DNA of 64,000 bases, from NCBI GenBank assembly GCA_947631495.1, contig CANRLO010000001.1, forward strand, positions 33,060 through 97,059. The letters are read 5' to 3'. Both the position numbers and the translations under genes were made by a program. The stretch comes from an uncultured Clostridia bacterium. GTDB lineage: Bacteria; Bacillota; Clostridia; TANB77; CAG-508. This document shows, piece by piece, positions 4,828 to 24,266 of this stretch. The stretch's first letter is position 1, and the number at the start of each line of letters is the position of its first letter. Under the pieces are notes generated by a model that saw only the letters and a list, made by a program, of their open reading frames with translations, had not been told where the DNA came from and did no database searches.

Positions 4828-4903
4828 CGCGGGGTGGAGCAGTTGGCAGCTCGTCGGGCTCATAACCCGAAGGTCGTAAGTTCGAGTCTTACCCCCGCAA
4901 CCA
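4828..4903 (+). tRNA. Initiator tRNA-Met (anticodon CAT), CCA encoded
   Basis: Hand-folded cloverleaf: acceptor CGCGGGG/CCCCGCA with a C1:A72 mismatch, D arm GAGC/GCTC, and anticodon arm TCGGG-CTCATAA-CCCGA with three G:C pairs closing the loop. T arm is GTAAG-TTCGAGT-CTTAC. The C1:A72 mismatch and GGG/CCC pairs are initiator hallmarks. Confidence 0.95.
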
Positions 4904-4911
4904 AATATTTA

Positions 4912-4954
4912 AAGCCTAGTAGAATACAAAAAATCTACTAGGCTTGCTTTTTTT
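4912..4954 (+). terminator. Rho-independent terminator after the tRNA
   Basis: 12-bp stem AAGCCTAGTAGA / TCTACTAGGCTT followed by GCTTTTTTT. Confidence 0.75.
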
Positions 4955-4967
4955 ATACAAAATATAC

Positions 4968-4996
4968 TTTTCATATATAGAGCTAAGTGATATAAT
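4968..4996 (+). promoter_or_regulatory. Candidate extended -10 promoter of the 5026-9104 operon
   Basis: TGATATAAT at 4988-4996 with a weak -35 (TTTTCA) 17 nt upstream. It lies just after the tRNA terminator. Confidence 0.4.
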
Positions 4997-5025
4997 AGTA
5001 AAAAAATGTAAAAAAAGAGGGAAAA

Positions 5026-6825
5026 ATGTCAGAAATCAAAGAAGAAATACTACAGCAATATGGAATCTATCAAAAAAGAAAATTAAAAGAAAATGAAAAG
5101 ACGGAATTGCTAAAAATCAAACAAGAGATAGAGAAAATAATAAAAATACCAATAGAAAAATTATACTTAGCAGAAGAAGCGGCATGGGGAAAAGAACCAG
5201 AAAAATCTGTTTATAGTATTTGCGTCTTAGTAGATAAAAGGACGAAAGACTTAAGTGAAAAAATAGATTTACTAATTCCTTATGCCAAAAATAAAAAAAT
5301 AGATATTGCATTAAGAGCAATGTGCCAATTTGAAAAAAGAAAGATGATACCAACAGAAAAGGATTATTATATTCATAAATATGGTATTAAAGTATATGAT
5401 AGTGGAAAAGAGACAGAAATTAATGAAAGTTTAGGAGCTACGCAATATGGAAGATATATGGAATATCATAGGGAATTCAGAAATTTTCTTCATACAAATG
5501 TAGACTATTGGATGAATGAAACTGTTAGAATATATACTTTAAAAATGGGATATGCACTTATTAGTCCAAATTCAGAATTAGAAAGAGATTGTAATTTTGC
5601 AAAATTAATAACAAAAGATAAAAAAATTATTAGCATGATAGACTCTTATTTAGAACAAACTGAAAAGAAGGAAAAAGAAAAAATATTAGATGAGTTTGAA
5701 GAATATGTGACTAGTTTAAAACAAGTAAAATTTTCAGCAAAACTAGAAGAAAAACCAACGATGAAGATATACGAAAAATTGTTAAAAAGAAAACAGAAGC
5801 AAGGAACATTAGATATAAAAACACTAACAAAAGACGATTTATATACTATGTACATTATACAAAATATTGATATTGATTTAATAGCAGAATTATATGGAGT
5901 GGAAAATAAAAGCATAAGATTCAAAAAAGATTATTGGCAAATAAAAAGAAGAGAAGCTGCCTTTACTAATACAGATGAAATAATAAAGAAAACAATAGAA
6001 TCCGCAGAAATGCAAAGCTCTAGCTATGCTTATGCTTTATTAAAGAAAAGTGGAATTATGGGCTTCGAAAAATGTACATTACCAATTCTAAAATATATGC
6101 TAGATAATGAAGTTTATTTATTAAAAGAATTTTGGCAATTTACTAAAAATGAAAAAAGTAAAGAAGAAAAATTAATTTTTGGAGATACAAAATATTCCTA
6201 TTGTAAAGCAAGTATGGCTGTAGAGCTATTATTACAAAACAACTTAATAAAAGAGGTAGATTTCAAACAATATCAAATTACAAAAGAAGGGAAGGAGTTA
6301 GTTTGGTATTGTATAGAAAATGATATAGAGCAGATTACTATTCCAATTATTAATAAAAAATTTAAACATGTTAAATATTATAACTTATATTACACAGAGG
6401 AGTATCCTACTGATATCGAAGAAGTTACATGGGAAAAATTATACAATAAATGGAATGAATATTGTAATGAAAACTTTCCTGAATTGTTAAGAAAAGAAAA
6501 TTTACCAATTGAAAATGAGGTAAAAAATGAAGAAGAGATTGCATTAGTCTGGCTTTATTTATTCTTTTTTAATTTAGAATTGAGAAATCTTTTTCCAAAG
6601 CAATGGGAAAAAACAATCTTTATAAGTATAAATGATATTTTAAATCCAATTCGACAACAAATAAAAGAAAAATCAATTTCAGTTGTTATGAAAAAAGATT
6701 TTCAATTAACTCAATTTTTAGATATTTCAAATGTAACAAAATATATAGAAATAGAAAAAGTAGAAGATATGGTAGAATATGCAGCAGTTTCCTGTGCGTA
6801 TTTAATAAAAATAAGAGAAAGGTAA
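5026..6825 (+). CDS. Hypothetical protein A (599 aa): unique N and C domains around an HTH-like + winged-helix module shared with the next gene
   Basis: AGAGGG RBS. Residues ~246-435 are paralogous to residues 1-190 of the downstream protein. No catalytic motif recognised. Confidence 0.7.
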   Translation: MSEIKEEILQQYGIYQKRKLKENEKTELLKIKQEIEKIIKIPIEKLYLAEEAAWGKEPEKSVYSICVLVDKRTKDLSEKIDLLIPYAKNKKIDIALRAMCQFEKRKMIPTEKDYYIHKYGIKVYDSGKETEINESLGATQYGRYMEYHREFRNFLHTNVDYWMNETVRIYTLKMGYALISPNSELERDCNFAKLITKDKKIISMIDSYLEQTEKKEKEKILDEFEEYVTSLKQVKFSAKLEEKPTMKIYEKLLKRKQKQGTLDIKTLTKDDLYTMYIIQNIDIDLIAELYGVENKSIRFKKDYWQIKRREAAFTNTDEIIKKTIESAEMQSSSYAYALLKKSGIMGFEKCTLPILKYMLDNEVYLLKEFWQFTKNEKSKEEKLIFGDTKYSYCKASMAVELLLQNNLIKEVDFKQYQITKEGKELVWYCIENDIEQITIPIINKKFKHVKYYNLYYTEEYPTDIEEVTWEKLYNKWNEYCNENFPELLRKENLPIENEVKNEEEIALVWLYLFFFNLELRNLFPKQWEKTIFISINDILNPIRQQIKEKSISVVMKKDFQLTQFLDISNVTKYIEIEKVEDMVEYAAVSCAYLIKIRER

Positions 6826-23645: not shown

Positions 23646-23797
23646 GTTTAAAAAATATTTACTATATCAAAAGATTATATGAATTTATATTAGAAAGAAC
23701 AGACATGAAACCAATTTGGATAAAAAAATAAAATTCTGCAGAGATTTCTGCAGAGCTCTGTAGTGAATTCTTCAGAAATCCGGAAAAATTAACAGAA

Positions 23798-23832
23798 ACT
23801 AATACAGGAAGAAAAAGACTTCCTGTATTAGT
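23798..23832. terminator. Hairpin between convergent genes
   Basis: 14-bp arms ACTAATACAGGAAG / CTTCCTGTATTAGT, loop AAAAAGA, T-rich 3' flank. Confidence 0.6.
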
Positions 23833-23833
23833 T

Positions 23834-24124
23834 TTATTCTTCAAAACATCCCGTAATTATCTCCACCCCATTGCAAAATCCATTCCTATAAAACTTTTCA
23901 TTCCAATACTCAAGATAATCATTAAAAGCCTTATCAAGAACTTCAAAATTCATTTTAATACAATCTTGTTTATCTTCAGGAACAGCCTTTAAAACTTCAT
24001 TCATAATAGTATCAAAATAATGGCAATACTCCTTATCAGCATCATCAAAGGTAGAAATACTATCTTTCCTAATCTCTATAAATTCTTTTAAAATATCATC
24101 ATTAACTTCTCTTAAATTATTCAT
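23834..24124 (-). CDS. Small acidic protein (96 aa), island-end paralogue 2
   Basis: GGAGG RBS. C-terminus FNDYLEYWNEKFYRNGFCNGVEIITGC is paralogous to 18272-18562. Confidence 0.6.
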   Translation of the reverse strand: MNNLREVNDDILKEFIEIRKDSISTFDDADKEYCHYFDTIMNEVLKAVPEDKQDCIKMNFEVLDKAFNDYLEYWNEKFYRNGFCNGVEIITGCFEE

Positions 24125-24232
24125 AACAAAATACCTCCATGAATTAAAAAATAGTTGGGCTCAATTTGGGCACACCAAACATACCAACAAAAACCGACAG
24201 AAGCCTTGTAAGCCAACACTTTGAAAGATTTA

Positions 24233-24266
24233 CTCATAACCCCAAAATCATAAGTTTGAGCTTTAC
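24233..24266 (+). repeat. Degenerate direct copy of tRNA-fMet positions 32-65
   Basis: CTCATAACCCcAAaaTCaTAAGTTtGAGctTTAC matches 4859-4892 at 27/34 by hand count, in the same orientation. Confidence 0.55.

Follow-up and report, generated by a model that had tools for sequence, protein, structure and literature searches.

A probable fossil tandem array of defence islands behind the initiator tRNA gene of an uncultured Clostridia bacterium

The stretch analysed here, referred to as the window, comprises 64,000 nucleotides (nt) from an uncultured Clostridia bacterium (assembly GCA_947631495.1, contig CANRLO010000001.1), and our subject is the interval that lies between its initiator tRNA gene and maf. 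The window is C1:33060-97059 of G000, a metagenome-assembled genome (MAG) of 148 contigs and 1.63 Mb that is 89% complete with 6% contamination; other genomes carry G-numbers, and loci or contigs fetched from other assemblies carry L-numbers. ARAGORN finds one tRNA in the window, a tRNA-Met(CAT) gene at 4828-4903 on the plus strand, and Rfam is concordant (RF00005, 63.8 bits), bearing out the intact gene that a first-pass annotation, made from the sequence alone, had placed there. The gene has the hallmarks of an initiator, a C1-A72 mismatch and three G-C pairs in the anticodon stem (TCGGG/CCCGA; GGG/CCC), and is the only initiator-type gene among the three CAT tRNAs of the assembly. Its sequence is identical in 10 of 17 relatives, and the order comEA then tRNA-fMet is conserved across the genus. 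The Rfam scan of the window yields nothing real besides this tRNA, the microRNA matches at 19863-19928 being a hairpin artefact. In the spacer that follows (4904-5025, plus strand) a terminator hairpin precedes the promoter of the open reading frame (ORF) that starts at 5026, and the arm-type tandem repeats and the integrase that congeners carry at this place are missing. The first conserved gene past the array is maf (26653-27222, plus strand; PF02545), found in 26 of 41 relatives. All genes between the tRNA and maf are accessory, and most of them are anti-phage.

Two displaced copies of the 3' half of the tRNA gene lie downstream, on the same contig and the same strand as the gene itself. 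Copy 1 closes segment 1, segment 2 lies between the copies, and segment 3 follows copy 2. The block of identity is tRNA positions 32-76 (4859-4903), headed by a 16-nt core, CTCATAACCCGAAGGT, at 4859-4874, and the tRNA gene is attB/attL of the array. Copy 1 (attR1, 18729-18759, plus strand) corresponds to positions 32-62 and agrees with the tRNA at 30 of 31 positions, as the first-pass annotation had it, with 15 of 16 in the core; no match of this quality arose in 100 dinucleotide shuffles. Its similarity stops abruptly past tRNA position ~62, so that the 3' strand of the T stem and the acceptor strand are gone, and beyond GAGTCT it reads ATCGTTGACA in place of the TACCCCCGCA of the tRNA. We considered whether the ATC behind copy 1 represents the CTATC T-stem variant of the tRNAs of G009 and G006, and dropped the idea, three bases being too few. 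Copy 2 (attR2, 24233-24277, plus strand) spans positions 32-76 and ends in GCCA. It is identical to the tRNA at 33 of 45 positions, against a maximum of 26 of 45 in 100 Markov-1 simulated 64-kb sequences, and carries three changes in the core; the sub-stretch annotated earlier (24233-24266) does match at 27 of 34 positions. Of its 12 changes, eight replace C by T or G by A, the bias that neutral decay should leave in a genome of 25% G+C. The earlier statement that both remnants end inside the T arm therefore holds for copy 1, which stops after position 62, but fails for copy 2, which runs to the CCA end: copy 2 is a complete old displaced tRNA half, and truncation is real in copy 1 only. An independent repeat search returned the tRNA with its two copies as the top family of direct repeats. 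The starting point is uniform, in that every copy, in the window and at more than 70 other loci, begins at C32, the first base of the anticodon loop. Segment 1 holds no further att core at up to three mismatches, and neither nhmmer nor inspection by eye finds a third tRNA remnant ahead of maf.

Two other contigs of the same assembly carry tRNA fragments. The first bases of contig C115 (1-4006) are CTCATAA, with which another variant of the tRNA-fMet 3' half opens, one that includes a 7-bp duplication, GTCTTAC; behind this half there is no integrase, and a DUF262/GmrSD-like gene is 90.7% identical to one in the island locus L093. C115 may be a further integrase-less segment of this genome, or may derive from a strain variant with an assembly break at the att core. 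On contig C48, at about 4030-4150, fragments resembling a CAT-anticodon tRNA (GTAGAGCTCATAACCCGACGAT) and a tRNA-Lys-like sequence that ARAGORN leaves uncalled adjoin each other and may mark another scarred tRNA integration site.

What stands ahead of the two copies in the window is conserved too. Each is preceded by a gene of about 96 amino acids (aa) on the minus strand, at 18272-18562 as the right-end gene of island 1 (167 nt before copy 1) and at 23834-24124 as the right-end gene of segment 2 (109 nt before copy 2). The two genes are homologous to each other and share 43-49% identity with the gene located ahead of attR in G007, G020, G003, G014 and G022. Between gene and core lies an island-side arm. 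The P arm of attR1 (18592-18728, plus strand), which adjoins the core, is 86-89% identical to arms that precede intact 45-nt att repeats in G007, L104, L079 and L058 (Clostridium sp. CAG:575); the corresponding arm of segment 2 occupies 24125-24232. A scan with one genome per species detects 486 relatives of the 96-aa gene, nearly all of them in gut MAGs that bear the label uncultured Clostridia or Clostridium sp. and whose sources include rabbit, Hadza people, chicken and goat. We fetched 80 of these loci from other genomes, and 66 of them have, no more than 1 kb from the start of the gene, an att-like site that begins with tRNA position 32; its most common distance is 225-250 nt. Across the family, identity of the att site to the tRNA is 97.8% at att positions 1-16 (CTCATAACCCGAAGG[T]) and averages 47% at positions 17-45, and the tails (the last 29 nt) range from a full 45/45 match to unrelated sequence, with abrupt breaks at varied positions such as after 21, 23 or 36. 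Given this disparity and the variety of the breaks, truncated or decayed tails are common and the core alone is kept. The core probably represents a 7-nt overlap, the anticodon loop, with an adjoining core-type integrase site; a functional attR would need these, and the rest could decay freely. The signature of the family, an opposite-strand gene of about 96 aa located 110-650 nt before an att site CTCATAACCCGAAGG, is present at both window copies, at 167 and 109 nt. Copies 1 and 2 are attR scars of an integrative island family that is common in gut Clostridia MAGs.

The 96-aa protein itself has no match in Pfam (to E = 5) or PHROGs, and none by tblastn in phage and plasmid collections. AlphaFold2, run with 31 sequences, gives a low-confidence, all-helical model of three helices (predicted local distance difference test score 66), for which Foldseek returns no match in the PDB below E = 3.6.

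Many relatives encode an integrase at this place. Among the 14 congeners with enough sequence, seven (G005, G022, G002, G020, G007, G001 and G015) encode a tyrosine integrase of about 395-400 aa on the opposite strand, 177-385 nt past the tRNA, and in the tandem arrays of G015 and G010 an integrase recurs about 250 nt after the repeat. These proteins combine Phage_int_SAM_3 and Phage_integrase domains and are 41-96% identical to one another. Perfect or near-perfect direct repeats of tRNA positions 32-76, always starting from CTCATAA, lie 2-23 kb downstream of the tRNA in G010, G007, G015, G020 and G036. Between the terminator of the tRNA and the integrase, congeners carry tandem repeats, for example GGGGACAATTTGGGGACA, GGGTAAAAGTTGGGTAAAA and GTCACACTTTGGTCACA, that are missing from the window. 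Likewise, at L016, L008, L001, L005, L015, L018 and L020 short tandem repeats such as GGGGACAnnTGGGGACA, GGGTAAAAnTTGGGTAAAA, GTCACACTTTGGTCACA and GGGAACACTTTGGGAACAC occur 60-130 nt after the tRNA, ahead of the integrase stop; they differ between integrase subtypes and probably represent arm-type binding sites.

None of this machinery is left in the window. Searched in all six frames with PF00589 and PF00239, the whole assembly shows no recombinase on C1 at 4.9-26.6 kb, and a scan of every ORF of at least 50 aa in that interval yields no transposase, in agreement with the first-pass annotation, which had reported the stack as lacking both. Its further statement that there is no excisionase-like ORF is less certain, given the two uncharacterised 96-aa genes. 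The genome-wide integrase search that it proposed also came back empty: tblastn with the integrases of nine relatives against the whole 89%-complete assembly detects no cognate integrase and no integrase pseudogene on C1, and the best match elsewhere is an Xer-like protein on contig C2 at 28%. The combination typical of the family, an integrase with tandem arm repeats by the tRNA or by the preceding att site, is found in G007, G020 and others and is absent from the window. Given that 25 of the 30 other genomes that hold this tRNA-fMet island family keep an integrase of the cognate type, the window represents a degenerate case and not the rule.

Comparison of the comEA-tRNA-maf locus among relatives places the breakpoints at the repeats. 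In G308, a genome of the same genus in 10 contigs, the match to the window covers 2175-9574, including the integrase-less junction behind the tRNA; 6.4 kb of other genes follow, and the match then takes up again over 24233-27675 at 95.6% identity. The point of resumption, 24233, is precisely the base with which copy 2 begins, and segment 2 is missing from G308 as a whole. Four derived substitutions (att positions 18, 25, 30 and 40) are common to copy 2 and the remnant in G308, which are therefore orthologous; the core of the G308 remnant is intact, against three changes in that of copy 2. The tRNA-to-ORF 5026 junction is common to both genomes at 93.5% identity. G007 shares arm and core up to copy 1 and diverges beyond. 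Three rabbit-gut MAG contigs (L034-L036) carry the end gene of segment 2 at 97-98% aa identity with the same arm, and 22029-24145 is 96% identical to the L034 contig, which belongs to another MAG. In L034 and L036 this island end is joined to a fresh tRNA tail (44-45 of 45), in L035 to unrelated sequence. Because L034 and L036 diverge from the window at att position 11, the exchange point is placed within CTCATAACCC. Either of two outcomes had been named in advance as fatal to the proposal of an island array, repeats no better than those in shuffled sequence or relatives with identical content; the repeats stand far above chance in shuffles and simulations alike, and G308, G007 and the three rabbit-gut contigs differ from the window at the repeats.

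We find that the repeats, the conserved right-end modules, the integrases of relatives, the breakpoints at the att site and the lack of a cognate integrase are most readily accounted for if the interval 4904-24277 preserves, in fossil form, a tandem of two integrative defence islands whose integrases have been deleted, and we hold this reading to be very probably correct. Serial site-specific insertion at one tRNA att site, leaving a stack without recombinase, was also what the first-pass annotation had proposed, and repeats, relatives' integrases and breakpoints all support it. The integrase of the family would recombine attP with the single initiator tRNA gene, the crossover falling in or by the 7-nt anticodon loop CTCATAA. 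Every insertion would rebuild the tRNA from a 3' half borne by the island and push the prior half (positions 32-76) to the island's distal end, where it forms attR. A full island would then begin with the tRNA, its terminator and the tandem arm repeats, continue with the integrase on the minus strand and the cargo, and close with the minus-strand 96-aa gene, the P arm and attR. Copy 2 would be the oldest, original displaced half, decayed toward A/T, and copy 1 the half delivered by the element of segment 2, young at 30/31. The array would thus record at least two insertions. Whether element 2 entered the tRNA first, followed by element 1, or entered the attR of element 1, the same final order would result: tRNA, island 1, arm 1 with core and the tRNA half of element 2, the arm repeats and integrase 2, island 2, arm 2 with core and the original half. 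One deletion from about position 63 of copy 1 into segment 2 probably accounts for both the lost acceptor strand and the lost integrase 2, a fit that arises because in intact arrays the integrase sits about 250 nt past each repeat. A second deletion, between the tRNA terminator and ORF 5026, would have taken out integrase 1 and the arm repeats and spared the essential tRNA with its terminator. Given that both integrases and integrase-side arms would be deleted, the array would be grounded, self-excision being no longer possible. The features that had seemed not to fit a tRNA island are explained as well, since a cognate integrase exists in congeners, copy 2 is untruncated, and the cut in copy 1 fits the proposed deletion that removed the integrase.

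Several points weigh against this reading. Both deletions are reconstructed, and we found no relative that still has either window island as it was before the deletion. The junction past copy 1 (18760-18995) is seen in this assembly alone and is corroborated by no other. Inside segment 1 the difference between G000 and G308 starts where the MazG gene ends (9574), away from any att site, so that homologous recombination shapes the array as well. Segment 3 (24278-26637) has no att remnant at its far end and need not be an island of this kind; it is present in G308 at 97% and is lacking in G005, whose homology starts at 26638. The tRNA 3'-half variant of C115 could belong to G000 or to a co-assembled strain. 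Finally, this MAG, in 148 contigs, is 89% complete with 6% contamination, and what it lacks could include an unlinked cognate integrase.

Are the segments still mobile? As integrase-less, CIME-like satellites (cis-mobilisable elements, CIMEs), they could be served by the integrase of an incoming island of the same family that inserts into the tRNA, acting on a new attL and attR1, or by an unlinked integrase in trans, and segment 1 could be carried out in cis. In its favour, copy 1 keeps 15 of 16 core positions and its 86-89% identical P arm, the attB of the tRNA is intact, and CIME accretion and cis-mobilisation are documented for ICESt1-type elements (PMC5704250). Recent sharing between lineages also speaks for it. 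Nucleotide identity between G000 and G308 in the left flank is 80% for lytR, 83% for dacA, 73% for comEA and 78% for the comEA-tRNA spacer, the tRNA itself being identical (100%). It reaches 93-97% in the left island module and 92-97% in the block of copy 2, restriction-modification (R-M) genes, maf and NUDIX, and is 82% for comM and 84% for dprA. The outer modules thus stand at 93-97% next to flanking core genes at 73-84%, the jump falls exactly at the tRNA, and the integrase-less module has therefore been shared between the lineages more recently than the flanks. We examined the view that the integrase was lost before the G000/G308 species split and rejected it, the island modules being far more alike than the flanks, which recent exchange explains better. 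Against continued mobility, the assembly contains no cognate integrase, the integrase-side arm by the tRNA is gone, and the core of copy 2 carries three changes. Moreover, the two genomes are mosaic elsewhere. Over window positions 1-45000, compared with G308 contigs L125-L127, blocks of 73-84% alternate with blocks of 91-97%, and chromosomal genes at 34.9-40.2 kb (polysaccharide flippase-type, GH25 lysozyme, ABC transporter) are 91-96% identical, a pattern that suggests frequent homologous exchange in the genus. Because the mosaic is general, homologous recombination anchored in the tRNA would be enough to explain the sharing of modules, CIME-type cis-mobilisation being possible too. On balance we consider it unlikely that the segments still move as satellites. 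Equally doubtful is the joint proposal that the 96-aa protein, which accompanies the invariant 15-16-nt core at the attR end, is a new recombination-directionality or att-end factor and that integrase-less modules such as segment 1 still travel between species, by cis-mobilisation upon arrival of an integrase-bearing relative or by tRNA-anchored transformation; either route would explain the 93-97% identity to G308 that starts exactly at the tRNA.

Could homologous recombination, then, be the main shaper of the locus, with cassettes swapped through anchors in the tRNA, island genes and flanks, and the tRNA-like repeats carried along as old passengers? On the left, the stretch in which G000 and G308 differ is bounded by the end of the conserved MazG gene (9574) and not by a repeat, the MazG-helicase module stands in another context in G007, and the competence genes comEA, comM and dprA flank the locus. 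The right limit, however, is the first base of copy 2 exactly, the same island end is joined to differing tRNA tails within 10 nt of the start of the repeat, the spacing between the end gene and an invariant core of 15-16 nt is fixed in 66 of 80 loci, and the integrases of relatives adjoin att sites. We therefore regard homologous exchange as a supplement to site-specific insertion and no substitute for it, and its role as main shaper as improbable. That the repeats are chance matches, duplicated tRNA pseudogenes or an assembly artefact of a metagenomic bin, for which the fragmented, 6%-contaminated MAG and the E = 0.08 of copy 2 alone in an nhmmer scan of ~0.4 Mb could be cited, is next to impossible, given that the matches were reached in no shuffle or simulation, that the same tRNA start position with the same island gene and arm ahead recurs across dozens of independent assemblies, that independent sequences, those of G308, G007 and L034, bear out three of the four junctions, and that the exact repeats shared with the tRNA, at 15 nt, are too short for chimeric joins.

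Fossil islands of this sort have known counterparts. In the Islander survey (Hudson, Lau & Williams 2015, PMC4383910), 2083 islands use the anticodon subsite, the commonest class there, and 125 tandems of at least two islands are recorded. As in its class 'A', the island regenerates an intact tRNA gene, a 3' fragment in direct orientation, starting from the anticodon loop, marks the far end, and tandems occur at one gene. The survey looks for an intact tRNA gene with a displaced fragment of the same gene in direct orientation on the same replicon, which is what the window contains, and the exchange point within CTCATAACCC fits its anticodon-centred subsite. Unlike the Islander entries, for which an integrase is required per island, neither window segment has one; also unlike that set, the target here is a single initiator tRNA, the hosts are uncultured gut Clostridia, and the 96-aa end gene is not described there. 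A close parallel in process is the accretion of CIMEs and of elements of the ICESt1/ICESt3 type, for which the review of Guedon et al. 2017 (PMC5704250, on Pavlovic 2004 and Bellanger 2011) describes integration, decay and further integration at the att site. In the window, too, the integration genes are lost by decay and tandem elements are left at one att site, with integration and transfer genes gone, as in a CIME. CIMEs are, however, defined by the keeping of attL and attR, whereas the window lacks the integrase-side arm by the tRNA and attR2 has three core changes, attR1 retaining its P arm and 15 of 16 core positions and the core in the tRNA being intact. Unlike elements of the ICESt1/ICESt3 type, the intact relatives of the window islands show no conjugation or mobilisation genes. 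We conclude that the array consists of decayed, CIME-like tandem tRNA islands that agree in part with the CIME definition and lack the integrase that Islander demands. In the ssrA-specific islands of Dehalococcoides (McMurdie et al. 2011, PMC3146451), a single-copy small-RNA gene is likewise a clade-wide hotspot for horizontally acquired islands; the target there is tmRNA and the cargo reductive dehalogenases, in place of the tRNA-fMet found here. The cargo of the window, nearly all anti-phage (Lamassu, R-M, Mrr-like, helicase-nuclease modules), resembles that of the defence systems on chromosomally integrated mobile elements treated in PMC10201445. The array differs in that it has no remaining mobility genes, and several cargo genes are without family assignment.

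Serial integration, decay and tandem accretion are a textbook process and already known. New is a large, undescribed family of initiator-tRNA islands of uncultured gut Clostridia, with defence cargo and an uncharacterised 96-aa end gene. In a large uncultured group of gut Clostridia (rabbit, human, chicken and goat MAGs), anti-phage islands land mainly at the one initiator tRNA gene, and a simple signature, CTCATAACCCGAAGG with the 96-aa gene ahead, allows the islands to be mapped. The array also documents a case of island fixation through loss of the integrase. Its value lies mainly in annotation: about 20 kb of defence cargo is delimited, several of its genes without a family, and a protein family of island ends is identified.

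The cargo is a defence island in the usual sense of several recognised anti-phage systems in a cluster; defence-type matches comprise LmuB/LmuC, PDC-S36/Mrr_N-NOV_C, two 5-methylcytosine (m5C) methyltransferase pairs, MazG with a GIY-YIG/Schlafen helicase, an AEP-TOTE helicase and AAA_14/DUF4143. Segment 1 opens with an operon at 5026-9104 (plus strand) for an uncharacterised 599-aa protein, a 420-aa Mrr_N/NOV_C nuclease-like protein (PDC-S36 in PADLOC; domains from Pfam) and an uncharacterised 338-aa protein, which is 95-97% identical in nucleotide sequence to G308. The module at 9256-11640 (plus strand) encodes, by Pfam, a MazG-like pyrophosphatase, a GIY-YIG plus Schlafen-group-3/DUF2075 helicase and a DUF7695 protein, and is 88.6% identical in nucleotide sequence to a module within the integrase-bearing island of G007. 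It is followed at 12045-15677 (plus strand) by a Lamassu-like set of a 59-aa ORF, a 314-aa candidate effector, LmuC (13178-13663; PADLOC E = 4.9e-19) and LmuB (13647-15677; E = 1.6e-92). The last unit of segment 1 before the end gene is a convergent type II R-M-like pair at 15741-18047, a 321-aa ORF on the plus strand and an m5C methyltransferase (PF00145) on the minus strand. The methyltransferase (16709-18047) is frameshifted about 40 codons before its end, with motif X, GNAVPPLL, in another frame (translation of 16690-16960); the 321-aa ORF that faces it is intact.

Segment 2 (18760-24232, plus strand; Pfam, PADLOC and PHROGs), between copy 1 and copy 2, carries ahead of its end gene and arm a metallophosphoesterase (19008-19769), an AAA_14/DUF4143 ATPase (20043-21269) and an AEP-TOTE primase-like protein with SF2 helicase (21306-23645). 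Between the phosphoesterase and AAA_14 genes, at 19856-19941, lies a palindromic element of about 70 nt, the source of the spurious microRNA hairpin matches in Rfam. Further copies, on both strands, occur in C115 and at no fewer than 10 island loci of other genomes (L012, L015, L030, L044, L061, L067, L073, L074, L083, L104 and L105); the element could be a shared terminator or a small mobile repeat. Segment 3 (plus strand; Pfam) holds a 261-aa ORF and an intact m5C methyltransferase (25396-26595), the genes together occupying 24515-26595. In G005, whose maf is the closest relative of that in the window (98% aa identity), an ORF resembling IS110-type transposases (L024, 141-1343) lies directly upstream of maf, where the window has the R-M pair. 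Among the competence genes around the locus, comM, Mg-chelatase-like, is broken into at least three frames within 27950-29485 (start at 27950; ORFs at 28275-28640 and 28637-29485), reflecting either a pseudogene or sequencing errors in the MAG.

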